Assembly: GCA_001871445.1 (NCBI GenBank)
Contig: MNVD01000025.1
Coordinates: 8,808 to 72,807, forward strand
DNA length: 64,000 bases
DNA from: Candidatus Magasanikbacteria bacterium CG1_02_41_34
Lineage (GTDB): Bacteria; Patescibacteriota; Patescibacteriia; Magasanikbacterales; UBA922
Direction: 5' to 3'
Numbering within the stretch: the stretch's first letter is position 1; each line of letters opens with the position of its first letter. The translations under genes and the position numbers were made by a program. This document shows, piece by piece, positions 1,083 to 59,472 of this stretch. The notes below the pieces were generated by a model, which was not told the DNA's origin, did no database searches, and was given only the letters and a program-made list of their open reading frames with translations.

Positions 1083-1195
1083 GAGAGAGTAAACGACCGA
1101 AGTGCCCATGAAGGGCGATTCGATCGCCTTTGAAACAATCATGAAAACATCATTGCTTTAAAGGATCGACGAGGAGTGCTGCTCGTCGTCGATCA
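1083..1195. repeat. Bipartite structured repeat, copy 1. Module A is 1083-1143. Module B is the hairpin at 1164-1195.
   Basis: Module A: gagagagtaaacgaccgaagtgcccatgaagggcgattcgatcgcctttgaaacaat. Module B: gatcgacgaggagtgctgctcgtcgtcgatca. Both modules recur at 5224-5404 with about 90% identity. They lie 3' of the minus-strand high-GC gene. Confidence 0.65.
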
Positions 1196-1282
1196 TGCAA
1201 AATTACAAAGAACAATTGAGTGCATTGTGTCAGCTCCTGGCAGAGCACTCAGCGAGGCCAGGAACTTTTTTGCGTGGGTCTA

Positions 1283-2842: not shown

Positions 2843-3138
2843 GATATCCTCCTCTCCCGTACGCGGGAAGGTGATTTCTCTCTCACACATACCCCATGGC
2901 AGGAAGTACAGAGAAAATGTATTTGTATTGCAGTGGTGTGTGAGGTATCCACTACAATAGGAAAATCCCTTTTAAACCTTCAATCTTTATTAAAAATTTG
3001 AAAGGGATGGCGAGAGTGAATTAAATTCAACTCTCGCCAAAAAAAAACGAATGCAAAATTTCAAAGAACAAAGTGGAGTTGTTTCTTTATCCTCCCCTTC
3101 GTACTCCATGACGAAGGAGAGCAGATTTTAGGAGAAGT

Positions 3139-4971: not shown

Positions 4972-5094
4972 TCCATTTCTCCAGGGCTTTCGCCCACATG
5001 CTCTTTCCCATTTGGAATGACCGAATGGTCTTCAGACGATGGTACGACGGTACCGTGTCTTATCCATCAGGATTGAGCAGATTCTAGGCACATC

Positions 5095-5158
5095 ACTGTG
5101 CCCTTCTTCCAATTTTTTTAACGCAAAAAAACTCCTGAAGGGCACAGTATTATTTTTT
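5095..5158. promoter_or_regulatory. Nested palindrome upstream of the 3139-4971 gene, which also forms a plus-strand terminator-like hairpin
   Basis: A 12-bp perfect inverted repeat, actgtgcccttc (5095-5106) against gaagggcacagt (5137-5148). It encloses an inner T7-aacgc-A7 palindrome and is followed by a T-run at 5151-5158. Confidence 0.4.
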
Positions 5159-5223
5159 ATTATGTAAAGAACATAATATATTCCCAATTCTAAAATCTGA
5201 ATTCATAATTCTTCATTCGAACT

Positions 5224-5404
5224 GAGAGAGTAAGCAACCGAAGTGCCCACGCGGGGCGATTCGGTCGCCTTTGGAAAAATGATTTTATGAAATCATTTCT
5301 CGGAAGGAACATCATATATACACATATTTTGTAATGAACCGTTGCCAAACCACAGAGTGATTTGGGCATCTTGGTCGACGAGGAGTGCTACTCGTCGTCG
5401 ATCA
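5224..5404. repeat. Bipartite structured repeat, copy 2. Module A is 5224-5285. Module B is the hairpin at 5373-5404.
   Basis: Module A: gagagagtaagcaaccgaagtgcccacgcggggcgattcggtcgcctttggaaaaat. Module B: ggtcgacgaggagtgctactcgtcgtcgatca. It lies 3' of the minus-strand high-GC gene 5454-5972. It contains small hairpins (ggcgattcgRtcgcc) and a larger imperfect hairpin. Confidence 0.65.
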
Positions 5405-5453
5405 AGTGCAATTTTGCCACAGTCTTCACCGCTGGGGCTCGGTTATATGTCGG

Positions 5454-5972
5454 CTAGAGAGGGAGGTACTCGTCCACCTCCTCGAAGCGGACCGGGGCGT
5501 GATTCACGCGCTCCGGGAACTTCGAGAGGATGGCCTCATCGTGGACGCGAACACCCACGACGTAATACACCCCGCGCTCTGCGCCGAACAGCTTCACGTG
5601 GTGGCGCCGAGCCACCGGGTTCACCGGCAACCGGGCCTCCTTCTGCGTCACGAACTTCCCCGTAAGCACCTGACCAAGCCATTGCTTGGTAAACTGCTCG
5701 AGGTCGTTCCCCGCGACACCGCGGGCCGCCGACCACACGCCCGCCACGTCCAGCCAATTGCTCCCATCGTGGGAGCAGACCGCCGTGTACCTGGGCAACA
5801 TCCACCACCAGAGGGCGGGGAGGCCGAAGAACAAGGCGGCGAGGCCCACGACCGAGTCGAGGCCGCTCTGGTCCCAGACGCCGTCGGCGGCGACGAGGAT
5901 GTCGTGCCCGAAGGCGGCGGCGATGGCGATGACGACGGCGCTGGCGATGACGACGGCGATGAGCTTCTTCAT
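5454..5972 (-). CDS. Hypothetical membrane-anchored protein, high-GC ORF (172 aa)
   Basis: MKKLIAVVIASAVVIAIAAAFGHD... is a hydrophobic N-terminal anchor with a W-rich region. The RBS is TAGGAGGT. GC is about 64%. Confidence 0.5.
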   Translation of the reverse strand: MKKLIAVVIASAVVIAIAAAFGHDILVAADGVWDQSGLDSVVGLAALFFGLPALWWWMLPRYTAVCSHDGSNWLDVAGVWSAARGVAGNDLEQFTKQWLGQVLTGKFVTQKEARLPVNPVARRHHVKLFGAERGVYYVVGVRVHDEAILSKFPERVNHAPVRFEEVDEYLPL

Positions 5973-6019
5973 GATGACCTCCTAAAAGGCAAAGCAAACT
6001 CACCAACATGGCGAGTTGC

Positions 6020-6069
6020 GAGAAGCAATCAAGTGACAGTACTCATTACTGTCAATTTCATTGCTTCTC
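6020..6069. promoter_or_regulatory. Nested palindrome upstream of the high-GC gene 5454-5972
   Basis: Outer 10-bp inverted repeat gagaagcaat (6020-6029) against attgcttctc (6060-6069). Inner 8-bp inverted repeat tgacagta/tactgtca (6034-6054). Confidence 0.35.
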
Positions 6070-7363
6070 ACAACTATTTTTTCTAGTCAATTTAAATGAA
6101 CAACTTTCAAAAAAGTTTTTTCTCCAAAACTCTCGGAAAGCTAGGCGCGCAGACCATCTCAACCATCACGAAAAGATGATCTGTCACCATAGCCTTCTGA
6201 AAATTCTGCTGCTGCGAATTTCTTTCATGCACTATCTAACTAAATATATTTTCTCAAGTGCAAATGCGAAGAAGTAACTTCCAAAATGGGATTATTTTAT
6301 ATGTACACCCCGTGCCGTCACACTCCGCACAGTCATTCCAAAACAGTGGTAATGAATGTTTACACGTTGTACACAATGTTCGAATACTCATACACACGTA
6401 TTTACTTGTCTACTTACTACTTGTTACTTAATGAACATTCATCGCAATATATGCAAATGATGTCGCGAGTGTAAGAAAAATAAATTGGATCATACCGTTG
6501 TAAATAGTTTTCTGTATTTTTTTTGTTTGAAAGAACAATCATCAGTCTTGTTTTGCCAAGCAAAACATATTCTTCAATCTTTCTCTGCGTAATACAGAGT
6601 GTTCCCACTTTCATACATCTTGCGATGTATGAAGGAGGAACGCACTCGGTACTACAGTTTCTGATGAGACTGTAGTCTGATCGAGAAGGAGTGCCTTACC
6701 AAATTTCTTTAGCAATCACTATCAACTCCCATCAGCATTCTCCGTAGCCAAAGCGTTGGAGAAGAAAACCAGATGTGTATCTCACATCGCCGGAAAGAAT
6801 CTCTCTCCATAAGTCACGTGGCGTGAGCTTTACGGGACCTTTCCTTTTCTCGGGCGATGCGGGATCAGACACTTGTAAAGATTTGTATGCGTCAGTAGCA
6901 GACTACAAACTTCCGCATCCTTGTTCGTCTCACAACAAGCGAGAGACGAACTCAGACGTTTTGGAAGGAACCTTGCTCCGACAGATATGGATGGCAGTAT
7001 GTGGTCGAACGATGAATCGGTGGTGTACTCTAGAAAGATGTACTGTGCCGTGTCGTTCTTTGTCCGCCTTGGGCGGATTATGACCTCTCTCCGTGTCATC
7101 CATGTCTGTAGAAACAAAAACACTCTCTTGGTGGAGAGAGTATTGAAAATTTTTAATTTCCTTGGGCTCTCTCCTTCCCTTGGATATCCGTATTTACATT
7201 ATAAGGTGGGGGTCAATCTCGCTTCCCCTTTTCTCATGTTGACGGAATACTATATCACGCAATGCGATATTTGTCAATACTGAGTGGATAGTTGTTGTGG
7301 ACATATCCATTTTTTTGCTTAATTAAAGCCTTTTTTTGTACAAAATAACCTGTCCAGATATAC

Positions 7364-14456: not shown

Positions 14457-15182
14457 TCATCCCATGATGGCGGCGTACGTCCCGTACGACGCCAGCGTGA
14501 TGAAGAAGTTGTCCCACCAAGGGACGTACGCTTCCGCAAGCCCTCCTGCCAGTACAGCAAAGTATTGAGTCATGAACGTTGACGCACCGAGCGTTAACGC
14601 ACCAGTTGCGACAAGACCAAGGTCCAAGAACAACACCATGAGTGATGCCACGAAGATGAAGCTCAAAAAACCTGCCCAGGTCTTCTTATCCTTGCGACCC
14701 GGCAAGTAAGCCCCTTCGATGCTCTTGCCACCGATTCGCGCTGCAGGATCGCCCCACGACAAGATCGTCATGATGAAGAGGGCTTCTATCATCGGTGCGT
14801 GAAACACCAGACGAATGACGACAAGCCCGAGCAGGTAGCTGGACATCGCTGTCAGCTTTCCGCGTTCCTTCGGTCGAATGAACCAACGAGCGATATGCTT
14901 GTAGAACCACTCATACCAATTCGCGTACCAGATGCCAGGCGCCCACTTCTTCGAAGTCCAGTAGCCGGTGATCATGAAGGTCTCCACGACCGGCACGGCG
15001 ATACCGAAACCGATGAGCGTTGCATCGATATCGGCGTCAGTCACCTGTGGCATGACGACGAGTACGAATGCTACAACGTTGAAGATGATGTGCAGGAATG
15101 CACGTCCGAGCTCGAGCTCAGGCTTCTCGTTCGTAGTCGACTTCTTCTCAACGAAATTCTTCGAGTTCACATTGCCCTCCAT
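14457..15182 (-). CDS. Polytopic membrane protein, possibly in the CTP-dependent polyprenol/dolichol kinase or CDS-like family
   Basis: Multiple TM helices. Motif LSWGDPAARIGGKSIEGAYLPGRKDKKTWAGFLSF. The family assignment is tentative. Confidence 0.5.
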   Translation of the reverse strand: MEGNVNSKNFVEKKSTTNEKPELELGRAFLHIIFNVVAFVLVVMPQVTDADIDATLIGFGIAVPVVETFMITGYWTSKKWAPGIWYANWYEWFYKHIARWFIRPKERGKLTAMSSYLLGLVVIRLVFHAPMIEALFIMTILSWGDPAARIGGKSIEGAYLPGRKDKKTWAGFLSFIFVASLMVLFLDLGLVATGALTLGASTFMTQYFAVLAGGLAEAYVPWWDNFFITLASYGTYAAIMG

Positions 15183-20768: not shown

Positions 20769-23700
20769 TTAGTATCGATCGCTACTCTCTGAGTCGTTTT
20801 CTGCTGACTCGACGGTTGGAATTTCGTCAGCAGGGATGTAATCATCACCGACTTTTTTCATAAGTTTGACATCAAGGGCAAGTCCTTTCAATTCTCGAAC
20901 AAGCACATTGAATGACTCTGGCAAATTGACGCGAGTAATTGGATTGCCTTTGATGATTGCTTCGTATGCTTTGCTTCGACCAGGCACATCATCTGATTTG
21001 ATGGTCAAAATTTCTTGGAGTGTGTGTGCAGCACCGTATGCTTCAAGTGCCCACACTTCCATTTCTCCAAAACGTTGTCCACCAAACTGCGCTTTTCCAC
21101 CAAGTGGCTGCTGTGTAATAAGACTGTATGGACCAATGGAACGTTGGTGCATTTTATCTTCGATCATGTGGTTGAGTTTCAACATGTAGCTGTATCCAAC
21201 CGTTGTTTTATGATCCATTGATTCACCCGTACGTCCATCATAGAGTTGAGACTGTGCATCTACTGGGAATCCAGCTTTTACAAGTTCTTCTTTGATTTGT
21301 TCTTCGGTAATACCATCCAACACTGGTGTTGCTGCACGATACCCAAGAGCATTTGCTGCAAGACCAAGATGTGTCTCAAGAAGCTGTCCAAGGTTCATAC
21401 GAGAAATAACTCCGAGTGGTGAAAGGATAATATCAACAGGCGTTCCATCTTCGAGGAACGGCATGTCTTCCACTGGAACAATACGTGAAATAACACCTTT
21501 GTTTCCGTGACGTCCTGCCATTTTATCTCCGACTTGCAATTTTCTCATGTCAGCAACAGTCACCTGGACTTGTTTGATCACACCTGGTTGCAACTTGTCT
21601 CCTTCATCGGCAGAAAAGACACGGATATCAGTCACTTTTCCATGTTCTCCATGCTCGAGATACAGTGATGAATCACGTACATCACGAGCTTTTTCTCCAA
21701 AGATCGCACGGAGAAGTCTCTCTTCTGGTGTCAATTCTGTTTCACCTTTTGGTGTAATTTTTCCTACCAAAATATCACCAGATTGGACTTCTGCACCAAT
21801 ACGGATCACACCTTCGGTATCAAGATTTTTGAGTTTTTCTTCACTCACGTTTGGGATATCACTGGTGACCACTTCTGGCCCAAGCTTTGTCTCGCGTACA
21901 TCTGTTGCATAATCTTCCACGTGAATAGAGGTATACCGATCCATCTGTACCAGTCGTTCTGAAATAATGATCGCGTCCTCATAGTTGTATCCATCCCATA
22001 CCATGTAGGCAACAAGTACGTTTTGTCCAAGTGCAAGTTCACCATTGTTAATACTCGGTCCATTACACAGTGGCTGACCTTTCTTTACTTTTTGGCCAAG
22101 AGTCACCATCGGGCGCTGGTTGATAGAACTCGATGCATTTGATCGAATAAATTTATTTAAGTTGTATGTATACAATTTTTTATTTTTGTCTGTAATCACG
22201 ATCTTGCTACTGTCTACTGCAGTAACTTCACCATCTGCGTCTGCAAAAAGCACATGTCCACTATTTTCTGCAGCAATTTTTTCCATACCTGTCCCTACGA
22301 GTGGTGCATCAGGCTGAATACATGGCACAGCTTGACGCTGCATGTTTGTTCCCATGAGTGCACGCGTCGCGTCGTCATGTTCGAGAAATGGAATCATGCT
22401 GGTAGCAACAGACAAAATTTGATTTGATGCTACATCGATATAATCAATGTCTGATGGCATGACTGTACTTGGTTCACCATGCACACGTGCAGGAAGACGT
22501 TCTCCAATGAGCACACCGTGTTCGTTCATAGGAGTCGTCGCACTTGCTGTTGTTACTTTTTCTTCTTGAAATGAATTGAGGTACACAATCTCATCCGTGA
22601 CACGTGGCATGACAGGGACTGTCTTGAGGTCTTTTTTTCCAGCCAATGTTTTTGCCATGTCTTTGGTAATCTGTTCCCCTGCCTTGCCTACACCAGAAAT
22701 ATCTTCAAGCAAATATTCTTCTACAGTGAAGCGTGCTTCATTTGGCACATTTTTTGCTACTTTTCTATATGGTGCTTCAACAAATCCAAACGTGTTAATT
22801 TTTGCATAGCAGGCAAGATGTCCAACAAGACCAATATTTGGTCCTTCCGGAGTTGCAATTGGACAAATACGTCCGTAATGAGTCGTATGTACATCACGAA
22901 CTTCAAATCCTGCACGATCTCGAGAAAGTCCACCAGGTCCAAGCGCTGAGACACGACGTTTGTGCTCCAGCTCGGCGAGTGGATTGACTTGGTCCATGAA
23001 CTGAGACAACTGTGAACTCATAAAGAATTCACGAATCGCACCAATAACTGGTCGTGCGTTGATCAGTTTGTTTGGCGCAAGACTTTCGAGTTCGTAGGTA
23101 CTCATACGATCTCGGATGATACGTTCCATACGAGCAAGTCCTACACGAAAACGATTTTGCACAAGTTCTCCTACCGCACGAATACGACGGTTTCCGAGGT
23201 GATCGATATCATCAGCATCTTCTTGTGTCACGTTGAGTCGAACAACTTCTTTCAACACAAGGAGTAGTTTTTCTGGTGACAACACGCGCTGTTCTTTTTG
23301 ATCATAATCATTTCCTGACAATCCCAGATCAAATTTCTTATCAAGTTTGTAAACACCTACACGACCAAAGTCATATCGATCGAAGTTGAAAAACATCGAG
23401 TGAATAAGACTCTTTGCATTATCAGACGTTGCAAGGTCACCTGGTCGAATACGTTTGTATACTTCGATGAGTCCTTCGTCTTCATTTTCTGCTGCATCTT
23501 TTTTTAATGTTGCTTCGACATAATCGATGTTTGGGTGTGTATTGACTGATTGAAATGCTTTGATAATCTCTTCTTCACTCGCCATACCAAACGCACGCAA
23601 GAGTGATGTTGCTGCAACCTTTCGCTTGCGATCTACTTTTATCCAAATAACATTGTTTTGATCGGTTTCTATTTCAATCCATGCTCCTCGGTTTGGAATA

Positions 23701-24185
23701 ATTTTTGCCCCATAATATTTTCTCCCTCGGACTGTACTCTCTGTAAAAAATGCACCTGCACTACGGATGAGCTGTGAAACCACAACACGCTCAATTCCAT
23801 TTACCATAAAGGTCCCTCGATCAGTCATGATAGGGACGTCACCAAGATAAATTTCTTGCACATCTTCTGTTTTTGTTCGCTTGTTTACAAGTCGAACTTT
23901 CACTCGAAGCGGTGCTTCGAATGTTACATTTTTTTCACGACACACGACTTCGTCAAACTTTGGCTCATCAATCGTATAGTCTTCAAAATAGAGTTCCAAA
24001 TCTCGACCAGTAAAATCCTTGATTGGTGAAATCTCTTCAAACAATTCTTTGATACCTACATCAAAGAACCAGCGATACGACGCTTTTTGCGTCTCAATGA
24101 GATCTGGTGCTTCGATAGCACTCTTGAGCGTGGTGAAGAACTTTCGTTCTGCCACCGTGGTCTTCTGTCGCTTGTAGATTGGCAT
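20769..24185 (-). CDS. rpoB: DNA-directed RNA polymerase subunit beta
   Basis: 1138 aa with conserved rpoB blocks (GRHGNKGVISRIVP, the QRFGEMEVWALEAYGAA region). Confidence 0.97.
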   Translation of the reverse strand: MPIYKRQKTTVAERKFFTTLKSAIEAPDLIETQKASYRWFFDVGIKELFEEISPIKDFTGRDLELYFEDYTIDEPKFDEVVCREKNVTFEAPLRVKVRLVNKRTKTEDVQEIYLGDVPIMTDRGTFMVNGIERVVVSQLIRSAGAFFTESTVRGRKYYGAKIIPNRGAWIEIETDQNNVIWIKVDRKRKVAATSLLRAFGMASEEEIIKAFQSVNTHPNIDYVEATLKKDAAENEDEGLIEVYKRIRPGDLATSDNAKSLIHSMFFNFDRYDFGRVGVYKLDKKFDLGLSGNDYDQKEQRVLSPEKLLLVLKEVVRLNVTQEDADDIDHLGNRRIRAVGELVQNRFRVGLARMERIIRDRMSTYELESLAPNKLINARPVIGAIREFFMSSQLSQFMDQVNPLAELEHKRRVSALGPGGLSRDRAGFEVRDVHTTHYGRICPIATPEGPNIGLVGHLACYAKINTFGFVEAPYRKVAKNVPNEARFTVEEYLLEDISGVGKAGEQITKDMAKTLAGKKDLKTVPVMPRVTDEIVYLNSFQEEKVTTASATTPMNEHGVLIGERLPARVHGEPSTVMPSDIDYIDVASNQILSVATSMIPFLEHDDATRALMGTNMQRQAVPCIQPDAPLVGTGMEKIAAENSGHVLFADADGEVTAVDSSKIVITDKNKKLYTYNLNKFIRSNASSSINQRPMVTLGQKVKKGQPLCNGPSINNGELALGQNVLVAYMVWDGYNYEDAIIISERLVQMDRYTSIHVEDYATDVRETKLGPEVVTSDIPNVSEEKLKNLDTEGVIRIGAEVQSGDILVGKITPKGETELTPEERLLRAIFGEKARDVRDSSLYLEHGEHGKVTDIRVFSADEGDKLQPGVIKQVQVTVADMRKLQVGDKMAGRHGNKGVISRIVPVEDMPFLEDGTPVDIILSPLGVISRMNLGQLLETHLGLAANALGYRAATPVLDGITEEQIKEELVKAGFPVDAQSQLYDGRTGESMDHKTTVGYSYMLKLNHMIEDKMHQRSIGPYSLITQQPLGGKAQFGGQRFGEMEVWALEAYGAAHTLQEILTIKSDDVPGRSKAYEAIIKGNPITRVNLPESFNVLVRELKGLALDVKLMKKVGDDYIPADEIPTVESAENDSESSDRY

Positions 24186-24376
24186 AGATGCAAGCTATTA
24201 AACGTACATTCGAATTATATGTATTCACTGCAGAGCAATGAACGCATCTAATCCGAATGTTTTGAGTACAAAAAATGGCAAACCGTGGTAGATTTGCTTT
24301 CTAATTTTTATTGTTTGTTCGTTTCGATGTGCATGTTTTGCGCGTGCACAGGTAACGAATAATCCAGTGAATGCAC

Positions 24377-24400
24377 CCCCACTACTCGCGAGTGGTGGGG
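24377..24400. promoter_or_regulatory. GC hairpin in the long rpoB 5' leader
   Basis: ccccactact cgcg agtggtgggg, a 10-bp stem with one mismatch, about 190 nt upstream of the rpoB start. Confidence 0.3.
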
Positions 24401-24727
24401 TCAGGTATCAGACACGTCGTCGAGAAGAAGGTAGATTCGCTCCGTGGTATTATTATAAACCAACGGTATTTTTCTCTTCCCTTAGGGAAAAAAGTAATAC
24501 CTTTGGCTCATTTGACGACTGCTACAATATACGTTGAAATAAGGGAAAAGTCAAGTACTGAACACGTGTATAACTATTTGTCAAGAACTGCACATTTTTG
24601 GCTTATTTTAGCAAAATAGTGTTTTTCTTACTAGGGCGACGTGGGGTGGTTATCCCTAGAGTTATCCACATTTCATGGGACATATAGCATGTTGCAGATA
24701 ACAAAACAGCTTTTGCACAGCCTTAGC

Positions 24728-24756
24728 TTGACAAAAAGGCTTATTTGTGATATATT
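24728..24756 (+). promoter_or_regulatory. Sigma70-like promoter for the high-GC lipoprotein gene
   Basis: TTGACA at 24728-24733, a 17-nt spacer, TATATT at 24751-24756. Confidence 0.5.
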
Positions 24757-24891
24757 CGGACGTCTTTCGTTGGAAACGAAACAAAAAGTGGGACATTCGT
24801 CCTCCTTTCTGCTCTTTTCCAAACCAAAAACACATACTTCGCTTTCCGGGGGTTCCGGGGGTGAATGTGTGTTTACATTGAGAGGTCTTGA

Positions 24892-26106
24892 ATGAACCAC
24901 CGCATCGACGCTCCCCGCGAGCACTCGTTCCTCGTCCGCTTCCTCCTGGTTCTCCCGTTCGGCGTGCTCCTGAGCACGCAGATCGGGTGCGCCGACGACG
25001 CGCAGCAGCCCGTCGTGACCGACGACTCCTCCATCACCGAGCGCCTCGATGCGCTCGAGGATCAGGTGGCGGGGCTCCAAGCGCAGGCCGATCGGGTCGA
25101 TCAGCTCGAGACCCGTGTGCACAGCCTCGAGCTGCAGCACCTGGTCGCAGTGGCCGACCAGCAGCGCCTCCAGCTGGAGCTGGACATGGCGAAGAGCCAG
25201 CTCGACCCGTTCGTGAAGACCTTCACTTTCGTCGGTGCCGAGACGCCGGATCCGTACGACACGATGGTCTACGTGAACGGATCGCTCAACCTCGGCATCA
25301 ACGACCTGCTCGTCCGCAACATCGGGGCGAGCAACGTCAACAGCGACCAGGCCACCTTCGGCGAAAGCTGGACACTCGGAGCACAGCACGTAGAGTCCTT
25401 GGCCTTCAAGCAGGACAACTACGAACGGTTCATGTACGGCTTCGACCTGGAGTGGATCCACCAGATCAGCCCGTTCACCCTGTCCAGTTACGACGAGAAC
25501 GGGGAGAGCGTGATCACGTTCACCAGCGGCCACGTCCGCGTGAACAACCTCCGCGCTTACAATCAGCTGCGCGGGGACACGTTGTACGTCGATACCTATG
25601 GCGCCATGCCCGAGCTCAACGTCTGGAATCGTCTCGTGACAGGGAACCTCGAGGCCTTCAGTGTCGAGGTCAAGGAGCTCCTGAACGTGCTCAACGAGGC
25701 CTCGTTTGGCTTCAACGACACGACGGGACCAGCGGTGACGATCACTCGAAATGGCCTCGCTAGCGGCATGCTGATCAGCTCACCAAGCCAGGTCAGTTAT
25801 TCTGAGAAGGCATGGCTCTTTCGCGCCAGCCAGCTCGTCTCGTTCGGCCAGTCCAACGGCGACGGAACCTGGAGCATGATGCTTGAGGACGCCAAGCTCG
25901 TAGCACGCAGAGGCATGTCAGTCTCGAACGAGAATGATAACTGGTTCAACCCAGGTGCCCTGGTGGTGCATGGAGACAGCAAGTTCAAACAGGCCAGCGA
26001 CGGCACGCCGGCAGATGTCACGATCGAGGGCAGCCTCAACGTGACCGGGGCGGCCGACACCGGCTGCTTGCAGACCGAGGTCGATTCCTGCATCGACCTG
26101 CAGTAG
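24892..26106 (+). CDS. Hypothetical secreted lipoprotein, high-GC ORF (404 aa)
   Basis: Signal peptide with a lipobox-like LSTQIGC. N-terminal coiled coil (LDALEDQVAGLQAQADRVDQLETRVHSLELQ). GC is about 64% and GC3 about 95%. The RBS is GAGAGG. Confidence 0.55.
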   Translation: MNHRIDAPREHSFLVRFLLVLPFGVLLSTQIGCADDAQQPVVTDDSSITERLDALEDQVAGLQAQADRVDQLETRVHSLELQHLVAVADQQRLQLELDMAKSQLDPFVKTFTFVGAETPDPYDTMVYVNGSLNLGINDLLVRNIGASNVNSDQATFGESWTLGAQHVESLAFKQDNYERFMYGFDLEWIHQISPFTLSSYDENGESVITFTSGHVRVNNLRAYNQLRGDTLYVDTYGAMPELNVWNRLVTGNLEAFSVEVKELLNVLNEASFGFNDTTGPAVTITRNGLASGMLISSPSQVSYSEKAWLFRASQLVSFGQSNGDGTWSMMLEDAKLVARRGMSVSNENDNWFNPGALVVHGDSKFKQASDGTPADVTIEGSLNVTGAADTGCLQTEVDSCIDLQ

Positions 26107-26135
26107 CCTCTCAACCGCCCTCACAGGCACAACCC

Positions 26136-26173
26136 GGGCGACGCAGCAGTGATCTTCACTGTTGCGTCGCCCC
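26136..26173 (+). terminator. GC-rich hairpin downstream of the lipoprotein gene
   Basis: gggcgacgcagcag tgatcttca ctgttgcgtcgccc, a 14-bp near-perfect stem. Confidence 0.4.
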
Positions 26174-26217
26174 TTCAACTGCGATCTCGAATTTCGAGAG
26201 TGCTGAGAAGAAATTTT

Positions 26218-26252
26218 GAAAAAGCACGTTGTATATCAATGTGCTTTTTTAT
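26218..26252 (+). terminator. Rho-independent terminator
   Basis: gcacgttg tatat caatgtgc followed by tttttt. Confidence 0.55.
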
Positions 26253-26536
26253 ATGCAACGAAAGATTTCGCTTCGCTAAGATTACATGTTGACTACGTCA
26301 ACATAAGACTGAAGATTATGCTACATTCATGCCTTCCTTTTTATATCCTAATCTTCTAATCTTTTTTGCGAAGCAAAAAGGAATCTTAATGGAGCGAAGC
26401 GAAATGCAATCTTCCGTGTACATACGAATGCCCGTGATCTAGCAACGTACAATCTTTCTCCGCAAGTCATCAAACACCCACAAGAAGCTTGTTATCGCTT
26501 CTCTCAAAATATGATACAATACACTGAACACAACCT

Positions 26537-29005
26537 ATGGCACGAAAAAAACAACAACCAGAACCAAACTTTGATCCTACACTTTCACGAGGGATCATCG
26601 CGATCCTTCTTGTGATCCTCGCACTCATTATTACCCTGAGCTTTTTTGGTGGTGCAAGTACTGTTGGCGTGGTACTCAATGAATGGATTCTTGCCTTTCT
26701 TTTTGGATCCATGCGATTTGCGACACCTATTATCTTACTGATATTTGCCTGGTTTATATTGAAAGATAATCGATACGACTATCACCCTACGCATGGCATC
26801 GGTGCGGTACTCTTTTTTCTCACACTTTCGAGTCTCATGCACATGGGCTTTCCGGCTGTTGATATGTGGCGAGAGGCGCTCGCAGGTGGCGGTGGCGGCG
26901 TTTTTGGTATGCTTGCCTGGCCACTAAAAACATACCTAGGGAGTATTGGCAGTATTATTCTTCTCATTGGTCTTGCCCTGGTATCACTTATTTTATTATT
27001 TAATACTGCCATTCTTCATTTCTTTTCTCTTCACAAAAAAATATTAGCAGGACTTGGATTTGTAGGGGAATTTATAAAACAACAAGTACATGCTGATGGC
27101 AATGATGATGAAACAGAAGATCCTTACATGGATGACGAAGAGGAAACATCACCACAAGCTCGAAGATTTTCTGCAAGACATATTGCAGGTGATGAAGAAG
27201 AGGAAAAGAATACTGATGATGCAGATACTGAAGATGAAGAGGGGGATAACACAGAAGAAGAACCTATACATCGTGCACCAAAAACGCATGTTGTTGCAGC
27301 AGAGGATGAAATCCCCGACTGGGCAAAACATGTAGTTATCAAAGCACCCCCAAAAATTACATTACTCAAAACAAGCAAATCAAAACCAACGAGTGGTGAT
27401 ATAAAAGCTAATGAAGCAACAATCCGGGATACACTTGCTGAGTTTAATATTGAGGTAGACATGGGTGAGGTCCGTGTAGGACCGACAGTCACACAGTATT
27501 CACTCAAACCTTCTAAGGGGGTAAAAATTTCTCGCATCACAGCACTGTCAAATGATCTTGCACTCGCACTTGCTGCACATCCTATTCGTATTGAAGCACC
27601 AATCCCTGGAAAATCTCTTGTTGGTATAGAAGTACCGAATGAAAAAGCAGCGATGGTGACCTTCAAAGAACTGCTCGAATCAAAAGAATATGCAACTCGT
27701 CCACATGACATGATGTTTGCACTGGGAAAAGATGTTGGTGGAAAAATTTGGGTAGCAGATTTGCCAAAGATGCCACATCTCTTGGTAGCAGGTGCGACAG
27801 GATCTGGAAAGACTGTCTGTGTCAATACGATCATCATGTCACTGTTGTTTCAGAATACTGCAGAAACATTGCGCTTTATCATGGTAGATCCAAAACGTGT
27901 AGAATTGACACTCTACAATGGCATTCCACATCTTCTCACTCCTGTTATTACCAATTCACAAGATACTGTGAATGCACTCAAGTGGACGATCTCAGAAATG
28001 GATAGACGCTTTGAATTACTCTCAAAAGCAGGCAATCGCGATATCGGGACATACAATGAAGCTCATCCACACACAAAAATTCCATATCTTGTCTTTGTTA
28101 TAGACGAGCTGGCCGATCTCATGGCAACAGCGGGCAATGAAGTCGAAGCAGGAATTATTCGTATTGCACAGATGGCACGTGCTGTAGGTATTCATCTTAT
28201 TGTTGCAACACAGCGACCAAGTGTCGATGTCATTACTGGACTCATGAAAGCAAACATTCCTGGTCGTATTGCTTTTTCCGTTGCTTCTGTCACAGACTCA
28301 CGAACAATTCTCGATGCAGCAGGTGCTGATAAACTTCTTGGCCGTGGAGATATGCTTTTTTCTACAGCATCACTCAGTAAACCTGTTCGTATCCAGGGCG
28401 CATTCATTACAGAAGAAGAAATGAAGAATGTCGTGTCATATTTGAAAGGTGGCACAAAACCAACATATGACGAATCCATTATTCAAAGACAAAAAAATGG
28501 TACTGCGAGCATGTTTGGTGGTCCAGCAGATGACCAAGATCCATTGTTTAACGATGCTCAGGAAATAATATTGCAAGCTGGCAAAGCAAGCGCATCTTTT
28601 CTCCAACGACACCTTCGCGTAGGATATGCTCGAGCTGCTCGGATTCTGGATGAACTCGAAGAAGCTGGTATCATAGGTCCAGCCGATGGATCAAAACCTC
28701 GTGAAGTTCTCGTGACAGAAAAGCAAGTTCCGAGTACTATGGGTATGGGACAAGAATTCAACGTTTTTGAAGATGATACTGAGACAGATGAGGGTAGTGA
28801 TGAAGAAGAAACCGATGCAACGTTTGTTGAATATGAAGATGAAGAAGAAACAGAAGAAGAAATAGATGACAAGGCAAATCCAGATGAAGAAACCAATGAG
28901 GCGGATAGTGAAGAAGAAGAAGATAGCAATGAAGATGATGAGACAGATGAGGAACTTCTCGAGGAAGAATTGGAGGAAGATGCTGATCAAAAATTCTTTA
29001 AATAA
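26537..29005 (+). CDS. ftsK: DNA translocase FtsK/SpoIIIE with a roughly 90-aa poly-acidic C-terminal tail
   Basis: N-terminal TM helices. Motor domain with Walker A LVAGATGSGKTVCVN. The gamma-domain-like region is followed by a D/E-rich tail. Confidence 0.9.
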   Translation: MARKKQQPEPNFDPTLSRGIIAILLVILALIITLSFFGGASTVGVVLNEWILAFLFGSMRFATPIILLIFAWFILKDNRYDYHPTHGIGAVLFFLTLSSLMHMGFPAVDMWREALAGGGGGVFGMLAWPLKTYLGSIGSIILLIGLALVSLILLFNTAILHFFSLHKKILAGLGFVGEFIKQQVHADGNDDETEDPYMDDEEETSPQARRFSARHIAGDEEEEKNTDDADTEDEEGDNTEEEPIHRAPKTHVVAAEDEIPDWAKHVVIKAPPKITLLKTSKSKPTSGDIKANEATIRDTLAEFNIEVDMGEVRVGPTVTQYSLKPSKGVKISRITALSNDLALALAAHPIRIEAPIPGKSLVGIEVPNEKAAMVTFKELLESKEYATRPHDMMFALGKDVGGKIWVADLPKMPHLLVAGATGSGKTVCVNTIIMSLLFQNTAETLRFIMVDPKRVELTLYNGIPHLLTPVITNSQDTVNALKWTISEMDRRFELLSKAGNRDIGTYNEAHPHTKIPYLVFVIDELADLMATAGNEVEAGIIRIAQMARAVGIHLIVATQRPSVDVITGLMKANIPGRIAFSVASVTDSRTILDAAGADKLLGRGDMLFSTASLSKPVRIQGAFITEEEMKNVVSYLKGGTKPTYDESIIQRQKNGTASMFGGPADDQDPLFNDAQEIILQAGKASASFLQRHLRVGYARAARILDELEEAGIIGPADGSKPREVLVTEKQVPSTMGMGQEFNVFEDDTETDEGSDEEETDATFVEYEDEEETEEEIDDKANPDEETNEADSEEEEDSNEDDETDEELLEEELEEDADQKFFK

Positions 29006-38907: not shown

Positions 38908-38933
38908 CTTCTTGGCGTACAATCCGAGACCAT

Positions 38934-39023
38934 GGAGAGGTGTCAGAGTGGTCGAATGTGCCGCTTTCGAAAAGCGGTGTTCGGGAAACCGAACCGCGGG
39001 TTCAAATCCCGCCCTCTCCGCCA
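38934..39023 (+). tRNA. tRNA-Ser (anticodon CGA), long variable arm, CCA encoded
   Basis: GGAGAGG acceptor pairing with CCTCTCC. Anticodon stem CCGCT/AGCGG with loop TTCGAAA. T-loop GGTTCAAATCC. A small hairpin (gaggtgtggtcacctc) follows. Confidence 0.85.
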
Positions 39024-39205
39024 ATTTTCAGAATTTTCGGAAGTTTTACGCACCTGAGGTGTGGTCACCTCGCCTGAGGGAGAGGCTGAAAGGGCTGATT
39101 TTATCATGCTCGCAGACGGGAGTTGCTCCAGCAGCTTCTATATATTTTTGGATATACAGCAATACAAAAATACGGTATGATATAAAAGTATTTTGTAAAT
39201 TTTTT

Positions 39206-39826
39206 ATGAAAAAACGCTCAACCAATCTACAGCATTACTTCCTTCAAGATATCAATCCCGTTATTCGATTTCTTATTCTTTCAGATACCATTGTTATGGG
39301 ATCTGTGGGATTGTTGGGGCCAATTTTTGCACTCTTTATTACAGATTTTATTACTGGTGGAAATGAAGCTGTCGCAGGACTTGCAGCGGGCATTTATCTT
39401 TTTACAAAAAGCGTTCTTCAAATTCCTATTGCACATTTTATCGACAAAATACGCGGAGAAAAAGATGACTTTTGGCTCTTGTTTATTTTTACCCTACTCA
39501 TGGCGTTTGTTCCTCTACTCTATCTTATCATTCATACCCCAGCCCAACTGTACCTAGTTCAATTTTTATTAGGTTTTTTTACTGCGTTTACATTCCCTAC
39601 ATACATGGCAATTTTTACTCGTCATATCGATAAAAAAAAGGAAGGGACAGAATGGGGTGTGTATTTCACACTCACAGATTTGACAAGTGCAGCACTTGCA
39701 GCACTTGGTGGATTTATCGCCACATATAGTGGATTTCCGATTCTTATCGTATCGGTTGTGGTTGTATCATTTATTGGAGCGCTCCTCCTCTGGCCTATCA
39801 AACCGTATCTTAAAATGTCTTCATAA
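39206..39826 (+). CDS. Hypothetical polytopic membrane protein (MFS-like half transporter?)
   Basis: Start taken at the ATG at 39206 (MKKRSTN...). The ORF-track start at 38912 overlaps the tRNA and is rejected. Six predicted TM helices. Confidence 0.45.
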   Translation: MKKRSTNLQHYFLQDINPVIRFLILSDTIVMGSVGLLGPIFALFITDFITGGNEAVAGLAAGIYLFTKSVLQIPIAHFIDKIRGEKDDFWLLFIFTLLMAFVPLLYLIIHTPAQLYLVQFLLGFFTAFTFPTYMAIFTRHIDKKKEGTEWGVYFTLTDLTSAALAALGGFIATYSGFPILIVSVVVVSFIGALLLWPIKPYLKMSS

Positions 39827-40986: not shown

Positions 40987-43284
40987 ATGAAAAAAAACTT
41001 TTTCGCTAAAATCGGTCATTTTGCCGTAGTGGGGGCACTTTTATTCAATACGTTTGGTGTGGCGTTAGTGCATGCTGAAGTATCCACAGTAGGGTTTAAA
41101 ACTGCTTCTGCTGGAGTTACTGAAGGTGATGGTACCTATACAATCCCATTTGTACTTTCTCAACCTGTGACTGCAGACGCTGGTCTGGATGTCTGTTTTG
41201 GTGCAGGTGGGACAGCCTCGACAACTGATGATTATTTGTTTGATATATCTAATGGTGGTACATACTGCCAAGTAGCCGGCCAATACACTTACACAGTTCA
41301 TCTTGTCAAAGGAGAATCTCGTGGTTCTATTGGAGTTGTGGTACAAGATGATCAGATAGTAGAAGGTGATGAGGCCTTGGTTTTAACGATGCTTGATGTT
41401 CAAGCAAATGCCACTGTAAATTCAGATCCAAGTCCCGAAGCAAGTGTCGATGCTAACAATAACACATTTACACTTACTATTCATGATAATGATATCTATG
41501 CTCCTACAGTAAGTGAAACTCACAATACTGTTATGGAAGGAGAACAAGCTAGTGAACAAACAGTGAGTGCGCCTGGTGTCGAAGTAGCGACATTAACAAA
41601 TAACAGTGACACTGATTTGGATTATATATTAGATTTTTCTGGTACTGCGACAATGTCCAATGATTATGACGTTGCTTGGTTTGAAACTCCAGAAATCTTA
41701 TCTATTATGTCGAATCAAACTAACAATTTTCTAACAATACGAAGCCATTCATCTGTGACATTGTATGTATACGCTTCAGGTGCGCAAGACGATACAGCAT
41801 ATGAAGGAACAGAGTCAGCTACGTTTAGTATAAAAAAAGCTGTTGACCCAAATGATGAAACAAATATTATTGCAGACTTTTCTAACAATCCGATAGAGTT
41901 TAGTGTCAATATATTGGATAATGATACAAATGTCGCTTTTGGCACATCCAGTTCTTTGGTACCTCCTACTTCTGGAAATGCAAATGTAGCAAAGATTGTA
42001 AATAATAGTGACCTCGACGTTGCCGTTTCATTTACACTCGAAGGAACTGCGGGACTTGGTACAGATTATGATCTGAGAAATGAAGCCCCTCTTCTTAATT
42101 TTGGAAGTGAAGCAATAAAGTGGCTTGTCCCTGCGAACAGTAGTTCTAGTCTTCCTATTACAATCAATGACAATATTGGTGTTGAAAAAAAGATTGTAGT
42201 TTCTATTACTGGTATTGAATATCAAGATGGAGAAAGCATTCTTCCATTGAATCCCGTTTCTGAGCAACTATCTCATACAGTATTTCTAAACACATCGCCA
42301 GTACTAACGGAAGCCACATTACAAAATCAAAGTATCGATCTCTATACAACAACGACAGCTACGATAAGCAATGAAATTATCAAAGCCGCTTTCAATGACC
42401 CTGATGAAAATAGGCTCATGTTTAGTGTTTCTGGAAATACAAATGAGTCAGCGGTAACAGCAAATTTTGATGATGTTTCAAATCTGACTCTAACGGGATT
42501 ACATGTTGGTACAAGTACTATCGAAGTCACTGCAGACGATCAATACAATGGAATAGTTACCACAACATTTGATGTTGTTGTTACAGATTCTACTCCTACT
42601 AACAATGGTGGTGGAACATTCCTCCCAAATACACCTCCAACGGCAGCATTTACGACTGGACAAGAAGTAACGATAGCAGTCAATACAGAAGTTACGTTTG
42701 ATGCAAGCGATAGCACAGACAAAGAAGGAAATATTCAATTTTACTTCTGGAACTTTGGAGACGAAAGTGCTGAAGAATACTACACAGCTCCAACCGTCAC
42801 TCATACGTATACAACAATCGGTACATACACACTTGCTGTGCGAGTCCGAGATTCACATGGTGCAGAAAGTACAGCAACAGTTGCAGTACATGTAGTAAAA
42901 GAAAATGGCAGTACACCAACCACAGAAACCGGAAACTCAGGAACACCTTCAACGAGCACACCAAGTACAGATAACGGAACACCTACAGACAATGGAAATA
43001 CGCCAGAAGAAACAAGAGAGACAACAGTCCCTCCAACAAGAGAAACTACAACTCCAGGTACTCCTACTGAAGCAACCCCTTCAGGAGAAGAGGTTACTGA
43101 AGAACCGACTACAGACAATACAGAGCAAAAGACAACAAATGATAATGGTGAAGAAGTTGAAACACCTACCACCGAAGAAAAACAAGGACTTCCAACGTGG
43201 ATCCGTATCTTCTTTGGCAGTGGTGCCGTGGCAGCAATCGCTGGTGCTGGTATCGCAATCAACCGAGCACGCAAAGCTCTCTAA
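40987..43284 (+). CDS. Cell-surface protein with a PKD domain and a C-terminal membrane anchor
   Basis: Signal peptide. PKD-like block (TFDASDSTDKEGNIQFYFWNFGDES...VTHTYTTIGTYTLAVRVRDSHGAEST). T/P/E-rich stalk. C-terminal TM plus RARKAL. Confidence 0.65.
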   Translation: MKKNFFAKIGHFAVVGALLFNTFGVALVHAEVSTVGFKTASAGVTEGDGTYTIPFVLSQPVTADAGLDVCFGAGGTASTTDDYLFDISNGGTYCQVAGQYTYTVHLVKGESRGSIGVVVQDDQIVEGDEALVLTMLDVQANATVNSDPSPEASVDANNNTFTLTIHDNDIYAPTVSETHNTVMEGEQASEQTVSAPGVEVATLTNNSDTDLDYILDFSGTATMSNDYDVAWFETPEILSIMSNQTNNFLTIRSHSSVTLYVYASGAQDDTAYEGTESATFSIKKAVDPNDETNIIADFSNNPIEFSVNILDNDTNVAFGTSSSLVPPTSGNANVAKIVNNSDLDVAVSFTLEGTAGLGTDYDLRNEAPLLNFGSEAIKWLVPANSSSSLPITINDNIGVEKKIVVSITGIEYQDGESILPLNPVSEQLSHTVFLNTSPVLTEATLQNQSIDLYTTTTATISNEIIKAAFNDPDENRLMFSVSGNTNESAVTANFDDVSNLTLTGLHVGTSTIEVTADDQYNGIVTTTFDVVVTDSTPTNNGGGTFLPNTPPTAAFTTGQEVTIAVNTEVTFDASDSTDKEGNIQFYFWNFGDESAEEYYTAPTVTHTYTTIGTYTLAVRVRDSHGAESTATVAVHVVKENGSTPTTETGNSGTPSTSTPSTDNGTPTDNGNTPEETRETTVPPTRETTTPGTPTEATPSGEEVTEEPTTDNTEQKTTNDNGEEVETPTTEEKQGLPTWIRIFFGSGAVAAIAGAGIAINRARKAL

Positions 43285-47196: not shown

Positions 47197-47229
47197 CGAT
47201 GACATTTGCTAAAAAAACTACACCATGTG

Positions 47230-47600
47230 TATACTATATCTATGAAGAGGGGGCACGGTGCCACCTTTTTTTTGTCTCTAGCCAGAGGAGAGCCGCCATG
47301 CTTCCCGTCTCGAAGCACAGCCAGCCCCGCCGATCCCACCAGCACCTCACCGGCGGGCGCGTGAAGAACTGTCGGCTCCTCCGACCAAACAATCGCGCGG
47401 GATAGGCGCGACCCCCTCCTGCGTGCGAGATGCACTCAGATGAACGGCGCCACGCCGTGTGATGCGCGGGTGTTGAGTCGCTGAGGCGACTTCACCCATG
47501 ACAAGCGTCACGAAACCAAGGTCCGGACGGGAGCACACCGGCTCACTGTACATGAGCACTGTGTCACCCGTCCGGACCGCGGTGCATTCTAAAAAAGAAT
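47230..47600. other. GC-rich (~60%) non-coding block with no intact ORF. Contains a 12-bp perfect inverted repeat ggtccggacggg/cccgtccggacc.
   Basis: Composition matches the high-GC ORFs, but only short overlapping ORFs in different frames are present. It could be a decayed high-GC gene or an ncRNA. Confidence 0.3.
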
Positions 47601-47603
47601 ATA

Positions 47604-47636
47604 CAAAAAAACATCCCATTCAGGGATGTTTTTTTA
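47604..47636. terminator. Bidirectional rho-independent terminator (rpsR end)
   Basis: acaaaaaaa CATCCC attca GGGATG ttttttt. Confidence 0.7.
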
Positions 47637-47645
47637 TATGAATAT

Positions 47646-47894
47646 TTACTTTGCTGTAAATCCGAGGAGTCCTGCAATACGTGCCTGCTTGATTGCCTTG
47701 GCAACCTTGCGTTGATACTTTGCAGACAAACCAGTCTTTCGTCGAGGTTTGATCTTCATATTTGAAGAAAGAAATCGACGAAGTGTTTCGATATCTTTAT
47801 AATCAACGTCTTCGATATCGTGCGCCTTGAAAAAACAGTATCTTTTTTCCTGTTTCTTTGGAGTGTTATTTCGTTGTTGTTGTCTTCGTTCCAT
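47646..47894 (-). CDS. rpsR: 30S ribosomal protein S18
   Basis: YCFFKAHDIEDVDYKDIETLRRFLSSNMKIKPRRKTGLSAKYQRKVAKAIKQARIAGLL is the S18 signature. Confidence 0.9.
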   Translation of the reverse strand: MERRQQQRNNTPKKQEKRYCFFKAHDIEDVDYKDIETLRRFLSSNMKIKPRRKTGLSAKYQRKVAKAIKQARIAGLLGFTAK

Positions 47895-50932: not shown

Positions 50933-51035
50933 TAATGATGGAAGATATTCTCTCTTGTACATCTTGAACACGTAGAACAATTACAACATTTAGAACATAC
51001 TATGATATACTACAGGCGAAAATCACGCCTGTTTT

Positions 51036-59400: not shown

Positions 59401-59472
59401 GACCCCACCACGACTTGAACGTAGATCTAGACGTTAGGAGTGTCTTGTTCTATCCAGTTGAACTATGGGGTC
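59401..59472 (-). tRNA. tRNA-Arg (anticodon CCT), no encoded CCA
   Basis: Minus-strand GACCCCA...TGGGGTC acceptor, D-arm GTTC/GAAC, anticodon loop CTCCTAA, T-loop TTCAAGT. There is one A-C mismatch at the base of the anticodon stem. Confidence 0.6.

Follow-up and report, generated by a model that had tools for sequence, protein, structure and literature searches.

Compositional islands in bacterial genomes are routinely taken as traces of recent transfer. The described systems closest to the locus studied here are the vls/VlsE and OspC genes of Borrelia, integration hot spots and genomic islands, envelope proteins of the Lpp and CpoB/YbgF types, and palindromes such as repetitive extragenic palindromic (REP) elements and integron attC sites. 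In particular, the vls surface-lipoprotein locus is GC-rich in AT-rich Borrelia, a precedent that provides a lead, not a test, for GC-biased gene conversion as a source of such genes. Here we analyze a stretch of 64,000 nucleotides (nt) from Candidatus Magasanikbacteria bacterium CG1_02_41_34 (assembly GCA_001871445.1, contig MNVD01000025.1, positions 8,808 to 72,807 of the forward strand). This whole stretch is called “the window” below, and coordinates refer to it unless another locus is named. The subject is a gene between rpoB and ftsK whose GC content at third codon positions (GC3) is 0.86. An earlier reading of the letters alone (the sequence-only reading) regarded this gene as a recent foreign insertion. 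In this case such an interpretation of a compositional island fails: that the gene is not a recent insertion is well supported, and its GC3 appears to be held high. The reading that we consider probable, with some reserve, is that of a surface protein which evolves fast and has long resided in an accessory slot of variable content, with GC-ending codons maintained.

The target open reading frame (ORF), at 24892-26106 of the plus strand, starts with ATG and encodes 404 amino acids (aa). It is a genuine gene; both the ORF call and the Pfam assignments of the neighbors agree with the earlier description of its place between rpoB and ftsK, divergent from rpoB. The GC content is 0.620 (0.61, 0.39 and 0.86 at the three codon positions), close to the approximately 64% reported by the sequence-only reading, which overstated GC3 at about 95%. 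The adjoining genes have GC3 of 0.29-0.34, and the GC content of the window is 43% in total and 41% without its four GC-rich stretches. The claim that the foreign-looking composition coincides exactly with the ORF holds at one end. At the 5' end the step is codon-precise: the GC content of the 5' untranslated region (UTR) is 0.45, and GC3 is already 0.94 in the first 35 codons. At the 3' end a GC content of 0.65 runs about 65 nt beyond the stop codon, through the first of three hairpins (hairpin 1). The earlier picture of an atypical GC3-rich gene with AT-rich, native-looking promoter and terminator signals was confirmed.

The gene is identical, and both its junctions are present, in six independent assemblies (two NCBI metagenome-assembled genomes (MAGs), plus JGI, ENA and Logan), with 0-1 differences over 2 kb and no single-nucleotide polymorphisms (SNPs) within the ORF. 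An assembly chimera is ruled out because both junctions are spanned in all six. An upstream ORF of 68-84 aa (24641/24689-24895), a gene in one public annotation, overlaps the promoter and the leader of the target gene; we judged it spurious, as conservation in the ortholog locus described below does not extend to its N-terminal half. Two further ORFs, antisense (24673-25533, minus) and out of frame (24888-25763, plus), are an expected by-product of a GC3-rich coding sequence.

The sole full-length homolog of the protein (P0001; 378 aa, E = 9e-37) is annotated as a hypothetical Candidatus Magasanikbacteria protein, from the Crystal Geyser aquifer. Its locus, L001, has the order IS30-like transposase (at the contig end), P0001, ftsK, a RodZ-like gene and recA. 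The flanking proteins of L001 are 92-96% identical to their window counterparts, and so we assign it to a congeneric species. The GC3 of P0001 is 0.85 within flanks of 0.36-0.39. Both loci share the promoter, the leader block and the Shine-Dalgarno (SD) sequence, and the 3'UTR is 88-90% identical over its whole length. An ortholog at the same position and with similar GC had been set beforehand as the observation that would decide against recent acquisition. The ortholog found at the same ftsK-rodZ-recA position, with its shared promoter and UTRs, thus refutes the reading as a recent foreign insertion.

An exhaustive HMMER profile search of 1.84 billion representative proteins gave eight matches. 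Six of them (P0001, P0003, P0004, P0005, P0006 and P0007, two being short fragments) belong to the family. P0004 covers only the C-terminal part and is identical there to the window protein. P0005 (47 aa) is a remnant allele in which the signal/Cys N-terminus is fused straight to the C-terminal '...CNAQP', the stalk and the head being deleted. Outside the family, the match of P0002 is confined to the coiled coil of the profile, and P0008 is a marginal match, a repeat protein. All five family members with available DNA have GC3 of 0.82-0.88 in AT-rich flanks; P0003 (locus L016) and P0007 (locus L017) both have 0.82. Scans of GTDB representatives and of JGI metagenomes returned only the already known ortholog.

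Another family member, P0006, is encoded in a more distant relative (locus L015) with an rpoB N-terminus 89% identical and ftsK 76-79% identical to those of the window. The gene order at 1220-4207 of L015 is rpoB, P0006, a gene for a 229-aa lipoprotein, a purine nucleoside phosphorylase (PNP) gene, and ftsK. The comparison of rpoB-ftsK synteny among relatives, proposed earlier as a check for an insertion, speaks against a recent one: the gap of L015 holds a family member and two more GC3-rich genes. All three have GC3 of 0.80-0.88 between neighbors of native GC. P0006 and the 229-aa gene, which has a lipoprotein-type signal, carry the three-hairpin 3' module described below, and the PNP gene has its own AT-rich promoter. 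The closest relative of this PNP, P0010, lies on a JGI contig of a fourth lineage with the order rpoC-rpoB, a gene for a 361-aa protein, PNP, and ftsK-RodZ-recA; a family member thus probably occupies the site there as well. The PNPs of the slot are 57% identical to each other vs 37-49% to all others; the nearest relatives outside the candidate phyla radiation (CPR) include uniformly 70%-GC genomes. Since the slot PNPs group together and not with high-GC taxa, they appear to be old residents.

No source of the gene was found. Homologs of the target family were detected in no high-GC genome, phage collection, plasmid (tblastn) or IMG/VR viral contig. Neither the 1.84 billion representative proteins nor 5.8 billion clustered proteins (from about 15 billion predicted ones, Crystal Geyser metagenomes included) contain a donor lineage. 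The protein search suggested earlier yielded a small family only, its members with available DNA all lying in AT-rich contexts. At the borders of the target gene, the window contains no mobility genes, integrase, tRNA or direct repeats.

Divergence from the ortholog is unevenly distributed along the gene. Its ends (5'UTR, N-terminus, C-terminus and 3'UTR) are 82-90% identical at the nucleotide level around an unalignable middle. In the head region the nucleotide identity is 34-50%, i.e., at the random level, with indels, and GC3 is 0.86. From residue 106 to the end the protein is 26% identical to its ortholog, vs 92-96% for ftsK, rodZ and recA. The stalk (residues 44-105) shows 21 non-synonymous and seven synonymous codon changes over 62 codons, which corresponds to a dN/dS near 1 by our estimate. 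P0003 resembles the window allele in the middle and the L001 allele at the C-terminus, a mosaic that suggests modular exchange within the family.

In the flanking genes, identical amino acids are encoded by the same codon in 63-65% of cases between the window and L001 and in 55-58% between the window and L015; codon usage alone would give 41-49%. As these rates approach the expectation, about 65% (L001) and about 75% (L015) of the synonymous signal is gone. A toy model of neutral amelioration (a rough one of our own), with GC3 starting at 0.96 and relaxing to 0.31, predicts 0.70 for the L001 split and 0.63 for the L015 split, vs 0.82-0.88 observed in the five family members. The head seems to provide a stronger argument for held GC3 than this model. 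Its synonymous sites are saturated between the window and L001 (0.53 observed, 0.48 by chance), and GC3 is about 0.86 in both species. Because the saturated, 26%-identical head keeps this GC3, the process of divergence appears to have preserved GC-ending codons. The vertically shared N-terminus has GC3 of 0.89-0.94, and its synonymous changes number 9/60 vs 36% in the flanks (binomial p = 3e-4). Such a low synonymous divergence fits a constraint on synonymous sites.

The sequence-only reading had pointed to a wider set of similar GC-rich genes, and the set exists. A single codon usage is common to the target gene, the three ORFs of the GC-rich island at 1151-6075 (Table 1), P0001 and the three L015 genes. 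It is characterized by CTC over CTG, ATC at about 1.0, AAG, GAG and CAG at 0.65-1.0, and third-position C and G at about 0.5 and 0.35, respectively. The amino acid composition is shifted in the GC direction as well: K/(K+R) is 0.32-0.45 (the native median being 0.61), with less Ile. The members include secreted proteins, orphans and one cytosolic enzyme (PNP). No Pfam, NCBIfam or PHROG match was found for the three island ORFs, and no relative in the phage and plasmid collections or in viral contigs for the two large proteins among them. Several class genes are followed, ahead of the real terminator, by GC hairpins without a T-run (1157-1201, ~5385-5420, 26136-26172 and 63353-63388). Two island genes share the hairpin GATCGACGACGAG...CTCCTCGTCGATC (1157-1201 and ~5385-5420) and a repeated block of about 60 nt (~1075-1135 and 5230-5300). 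In full-text searches of the literature, we did not find GC3-rich gene classes described for CPR or Magasanikbacteria.

Three window genes have intermediate GC3: 14457-15182 (minus; 0.70), 60470-61063 (plus; 0.60) and 62540-63331 (plus; 0.75). The first encodes a multi-pass membrane protein of native-type amino acid composition between rpsO and ruvC, and the third is followed by the GC hairpin 63353-63388. These genes could be graded members of the class or amelioration intermediates. The window encodes just two tRNAs, Ser(CGA) and Arg(CCU), and the G-ending codons they decode are uncommon (4%) in native genes; UCG accounts for 15-67% of the Ser codons of the GC-rich class, and AGG for 0-21% of its Arg codons. 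Both tRNAs are compatible with the class but are no evidence for it. A separate observation on the first of them is that the tRNA at 38934-39023 overlaps the 5' end of the listed ORF 38912-39826, and so the true start of this ORF is probably further downstream. Another separate observation concerns the island ORF 3139-4971. The loci L020 and L021, both of which carry this ORF, are 100% identical over 7.7 kb that include the GC-rich island and AT-rich flanks. Outside this block identity falls from 0.97 to 0.80, after which the sequences are unalignable. The block is either a recent recombination tract between two related species or a chimeric metagenome contig.

Table 1. Features of the target gene and of its surroundings, in window coordinates
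Feature	Position	Strand	Description
sigma70-type promoter	24728..24756	+	TTGACA, 17-nt spacer, TG-n-TATATT; 11/12 consensus, extended -10
5' leader, ~130 nt	24763..24891	+	putative transcription start; two hairpins, pyrimidine block, SD
Coding sequence	24892..26106	+	404 aa, GC 0.62, GC3 0.86; uncharacterised family, probably secreted/membrane-tethered
N-terminal signal/anchor (predicted), residues 1-33	24892..24990	+	charged n-region, hydrophobic core at residues 13-28, Cys33
Coiled-coil stalk (predicted), residues 46-108	25027..25215	+	heptads and AlphaFold2 long helix
Hypervariable beta-rich head (predicted)	25216..25803	+	from sequence comparison with the ortholog
C-terminal module	25804..26103	+	W..AS.F..FQSP.DG.W.IQVEGA...GF.A.G...A..V.GD.F..G....P....I.G; terminal Cys pair C392, C400
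3' hairpin 1	26136..26172	+	GC-rich, 17-bp stem, 3-nt loop, no T-run; arms 94% complementary
3' hairpin 2	26173..26211	+	nested within outer stem CUUC...GAAG
Intrinsic terminator	26218..26250	+	stem and T-run; from folding; kept in relatives
rpoB	20769-24185	minus	Pfam; divergent from target ORF; rpoC behind rpoB
ftsK	26537-29005	plus	Pfam; followed by RodZ-like helix-turn-helix protein and recA
GC-rich island	1151-6075 (ORFs 1283-2890, 3139-4971, 5454-5972)	minus	GC3 0.74, 0.92, 0.91; AT-rich spacers
tRNA Ser(CGA)	38934-39023		one of the only two tRNA genes in the window
tRNA Arg(CCU)	59399-59472		the other tRNA gene in the window

The gene is framed by conserved regulatory sequences. The AT-rich consensus sigma70 promoter and the strong GC hairpin followed by an intrinsic terminator, both described by the sequence-only reading, are present at the positions given in Table 1. 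In the L001 locus the block from -35 to -10 is kept, and homology with the window starts just upstream of the -35 box; comparable consensus promoters are found upstream of the family members in L015 and L017. The leader contains a small hairpin (24790-24803), a longer one (~24828-24875), the conserved pyrimidine block CCTCCTTTC at 24801-24809 and the SD sequence GAGAGG at 24880-24885, 6 nt ahead of the ATG. About 70 nt of it are almost identical between the window and L001, and the leader folds with z = -2.7. Conservation is complete in the leader block CCUCCUUUC; in each of the two species, RNAalifold predicts that CCUUUC pairs with the SD sequence GAGAGG. As a working hypothesis, this block may control translation by sequestering the SD sequence; we keep it at that level because the absence of sequence variation in the pairing means the absence of covariation.

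The entire 3'UTR of the target gene folds with z = -9.4. In hairpin 1 a compensatory change from G-C to U-A is seen at the stem base in L001, with further compensatory changes in the family. In hairpin 2, 7/11 inner-stem pairs are changed on both sides among six sequences, and a pattern search finds this hairpin only once in the window. The terminator was missed by a simple terminator scan because of its stem and loop limits. The unit of three hairpins is conserved after all family members and also after the unrelated lipoprotein gene of L015. In the 3'UTR alignment of the six sequences, 91% of cells are paired and both partners have changed in 14/30 pairs. The observed value was not attained in any of 500 shuffles, and 44-52% of cells are paired in slid controls. 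A covariance model of the module (R1) recovered only its six training copies in the window and the other loci searched. A dispersed REP-like or attC-like repeat is thus ruled out, and the module is, judging by sequence, a locus-specific 3' element of the mRNA. Rfam gave no match at gathering score or at E < 0.08 for the leader and the 3'UTR (24150-26600).

The protein begins with a predicted signal or anchor. Its n-region has 2-3 K/R among the first 12 positions, the 15-residue hydropathy reaches a maximum of 2.5 at residue 13, and AlphaFold2 (AF2) predicts a helix at residues 10-28. Within the following motif [IL]-G-C-A-D-[DE], Cys33 is invariant across three orthologs. In the distantly related members P0006 and P0007 the signal peptides are of the classical kind, with ASA sites of signal-peptidase-I type. 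Neither lgt nor lspA was seen among the approximately 40 ORFs given general scans. The earlier claim of a coiled-coil N-terminus is supported by heptad periodicity, with 68% of the a/d positions of residues 44-108 hydrophobic vs 30% elsewhere in both orthologs, and by a single long AF2 helix at residues 46-108. These are its two supports, and the helix is of low confidence: its predicted local distance difference test score (pLDDT) is 58-70 up to about residue 100 and lower after it. The C-terminal module (the last ~100 residues) is the sole motif common to the whole family and recruits P0006 and P0007 in the exhaustive search. The residues W327, E332, A334, G341, A356, V359, G361, D362, F365 and G380 are invariant in the alignments. 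Sequence and profile searches of the protein and its family against Pfam, NCBIfam, PHROG and PDB gave nothing or coiled-coil noise.

We suggest the following scheme. The gene would be expressed monocistronically and encode a lineage-restricted cell-surface protein, in which a Sec-type signal or anchor with a conserved, probably lipid-modified Cys would tether a coiled-coil stalk (about 60 residues). This stalk would bear a beta-rich head and the conserved C-terminal module, closed by the Cys pair. The gene occupies, by inheritance and not by recent insertion, an accessory slot between rpoB and ftsK, in which at least three of the sequenced lineages have from one to three GC3-rich genes. Its head has diverged beyond alignment between congeneric species, with the anchor, the C-terminal module and the structured UTRs kept. 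Such a pattern can be read as the mark of diversifying selection or allele replacement in a protein that interacts with a host, a partner or phages. Most plausibly, as far as we can infer, the product is a host- or partner-facing interaction protein or a phage receptor. The GC-ending codons would then be a maintained property of a discrete gene class, not the fading imprint of a transfer, and a fixation bias would act on the coding mRNA, by selection either for the set of GC-ending codons or for a stable GC-rich mRNA. As for the cause of the high GC3, selection on mRNA or codons is most likely the first and GC-biased gene conversion the second, and our data cannot separate them. The former is favored because the high GC3 sets in codon-precisely, unrelated genes share one codon usage, synonymous divergence is reduced and the UTRs have a distinctive architecture. 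It would require unusually strong selection for a symbiont with a small genome.

Several observations weigh against a long-resident surface protein with maintained codons. The synteny with L001 is demonstrated on the ftsK side only: an IS30-like DDE transposase fragment (1-825 of L001, minus) lies directly upstream of the ortholog promoter, at the contig end, in place of the rpoB-side sequence. The GC3-rich slot is counted in at least three lineages, the fourth, with two genes in the slot, being known by gene order. Surface location, lipid anchoring, the interaction function and the cause of GC3 maintenance are inferred. The lipobox Q-I-G-C of the window protein agrees at -1 and -2 with the rule [LVI][ASTVI][GAS]C with Cys at position 15-35 (PROSITE PS51257-type), and its -3 residue (Q/D/N across orthologs) fails the core rule. 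Thus, of the secreted lipoprotein described earlier, the signal/anchor with the conserved Cys33 stands and the lipobox fails the rule at -3; modification of Cys33 by a lipid, i.e., lipoprotein status, is plausible from the sequence. Two AF2 models, of the full-length protein (five sequences; pLDDT 37) and of the C-terminal module (42), were unusable.

The same is true of some evidence on composition. The amelioration argument depends on rough modeling. For the N-terminus, low synonymous divergence is equally expected from a recent inter-species recombination of this segment. Fewer Lys and Ile and the GC-rich extension past the stop codon are also expected of a foreign or a regional (conversion) origin, and the intermediate GC3 values of 0.60-0.75 can be read as ongoing amelioration. 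A native surface protein with PKD domains (40987-43284) has ordinary GC3; since it does and since the class mixes functions, function alone does not define the GC-rich class. Finally, no variation was observed within populations: there are zero ORF differences among the six assemblies of the target locus and zero among six for the ortholog. Nor did blastn and tblastn reveal partial copies of the target gene in the 64 kb of the window. A silent-cassette or DGR-type (diversity-generating retroelement) system of variation in the window is ruled out by these two results. With neither paralogs nor partial copies in the window, and with uniform sampled populations, the diversity lies between lineages and is not programmed in a cell line.

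A broader version of resident maintenance, which we put forward only tentatively, extends to the whole class. A subset of resident genes (surface proteins, a nucleoside phosphorylase, orphans) might be kept in a second, G/C-ending codon set against the AT bias of the genome, every gene being equipped with a separate consensus promoter, a long and structured leader, and a GC hairpin past the stop codon, or the subset might be the product of unusually strong, gene-targeted GC-biased conversion. It is possible that such a subset constitutes a post-transcriptional regulon, owing either to extra-stable mRNAs or to translation by tRNAs with CNN anticodons when the pool decoding A/U is limiting or attacked.

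Conversion that is independent of codon function seems to us rather unlikely. In this scenario the slot is a recombination hot spot in which G/C-biased repair of heteroduplexes drives GC up and holds it there. Mosaic alleles, variable slot content and the adjacent insertion sequence (IS) are indeed signs of recombination, and the GC pressure reaches non-synonymous sites (K to R, fewer Ile) and the first ~65 nt of the 3'UTR. The scenario is difficult to reconcile with the codon-precise 5' boundary, with an AT-rich leader, promoter and terminators left untouched in the same tract, with a cytosolic housekeeping-type gene (PNP) in the same class and with clonal populations that have zero SNPs in the ORF. 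To our knowledge, the reported effects of GC-biased gene conversion in bacteria are also far smaller than a shift from 0.30 to 0.86. Besides vls, a passage on GC-rich subtelomeres in Cryptosporidium canis (PMC10438818) is a lead, not a test, for this mechanism.

An ancient foreign origin with repeated re-import is quite improbable. It assumes a GC-rich pool that has escaped sampling (in a phage, a plasmid or a host lineage of these bacteria) and from which genes are swapped in by homologous recombination through conserved UTRs and gene ends, so that amelioration does not occur. The mosaic structure with conserved ends (82-90% nucleotide identity) around the unalignable middle, the P0003 allele, slot content that differs between lineages, the 7.7-kb block with another GC-rich island that is 100% identical in two otherwise diverged contigs, and the 70%-GC genomes among the nearest non-CPR relatives of PNP are all in line with such swaps. 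The pool, however, is visible neither in the viral contigs, phage collection and plasmids nor in either protein set, and the PNP copies do not group with high-GC taxa. Moreover, the GC3 of the vertically conserved N-terminus is as high as that of the head, and the 5' composition boundary is at codon 2, not at a recombination arm. Recent horizontal acquisition, in which a high-GC donor gene was placed between rpoB and ftsK and captured native regulatory DNA, can practically be dismissed: it accords with GC3 of 0.86 vs about 0.30 in the neighbors, with the GC-rich type of amino acid composition, with high GC beyond the stop codon through hairpin 1 and with the IS30-like transposase next to the ortholog, but not with a same-site ortholog of the same GC3, promoter and UTRs in a species with about 35% synonymous codon differences in the flanks, with family members in the same gap of a relative whose ftsK is only 76-79% identical, with the absence of high-GC-genome homologs among the 1.84 billion representatives, or with window borders that lack mobility genes, tRNA and direct repeats.

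Two further regions of the window were noted. About 400 nt at 47200-47640 have GC of 0.57, no credible ORF and a minus-strand fold with z = -7.7. Its neighbors are a tRNA (U5) methyltransferase gene on one side and, on the other, a small ORF (47646-47894) that resembles ribosomal protein S18 by look. Rfam gave no match for it at gathering score or a useful E-value, and ARAGORN gave no tmRNA; the region may be a candidate structured RNA. At 49205-53259 there is a type IV pilus cluster of native GC (PilB-like T2SSE ATPase, PilC-like T2SSF, PilM), followed by three small ORFs without a family match, also of native GC. Type IV pilus gene clusters are typical of CPR genomes.

Maintenance of the GC-ending codons in resident genes, if true, would have several consequences. 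A persistent and donorless bimodality of GC3 (0.30 vs 0.86) in a symbiont genome of about 1 Mb would be a new phenomenon of bacterial genome evolution. The anomaly runs in an unusual direction, being one of GC-rich genes in an AT-rich genome, and it is conserved in place despite synonymous turnover. If GC3 is held, these tiny genomes would be a clean setting in nature in which biased gene conversion could be told apart from selection on GC or codons, a long-standing question. For CPR biology, the gene is a candidate for a host-, partner- or phage-facing protein with extremely fast divergence between co-occurring species, and the rpoB-ftsK gap is a defined place for seeking interaction genes. 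Composition-based filters for horizontal gene transfer or contamination would wrongly remove such genes from MAGs.

The comparison with the vls/VlsE and OspC systems of Borrelia is drawn from general knowledge. Like them, the target gene would encode a surface-tethered (lipo)protein in an AT-rich reduced genome. It shares with vls a coding region markedly GC-richer than the genome, and with OspC conserved ends, a highly divergent middle and alleles that are very different between lineages. Unlike these systems, it has no silent cassettes or paralogs in the 64 kb and no population variation. Its GC enrichment is much stronger (GC3 0.86 vs 0.30) and is common to unrelated, partly cytosolic genes (PNP), and there is no sequence homology between it and the Borrelia genes.

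Integration hot spots and genomic islands are similar to the target slot in being bounded by core genes (here rpoB and ftsK), in containing one to three genes depending on the lineage, in atypical composition and in the presence of an IS element in one lineage (L001). The target slot differs from them in that the same family persists across lineages with ftsK 76-92% identical, and in that no donor, integrase, tRNA or repeats are found. It deviates toward GC and not, as usual, toward AT, and, by the rough model, is apparently not ameliorating. In envelope proteins of the Lpp and CpoB/YbgF types, too, a heptad-repeat helix follows a Cys-containing N-terminal signal, and P0006 has a sub-threshold match to PF16331 TolA_bind_tri (E = 1.4e-5; 25.5 bits vs the 30.1 cut-off). 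The window protein, in contrast, has no Pfam match, and its C-terminal region of about 300 residues, predicted to be beta-rich, has no known homolog.

The GC-rich imperfect palindrome between the stop codon and the true terminator (stem base GGNCGAC...GTCGNCC) is reminiscent of REP elements and integron attC sites. Unlike REP elements, it is not dispersed: the covariance model is limited to genes of the rpoB-ftsK slot, with one pattern in the window. Unlike attC sites, it has no R''/R' core sites recognizable by eye. Both comparisons differ from the target in one more respect, as its hairpin belongs to a unit of three hairpins supported by covariation, which fits an element of the mRNA 3' end.

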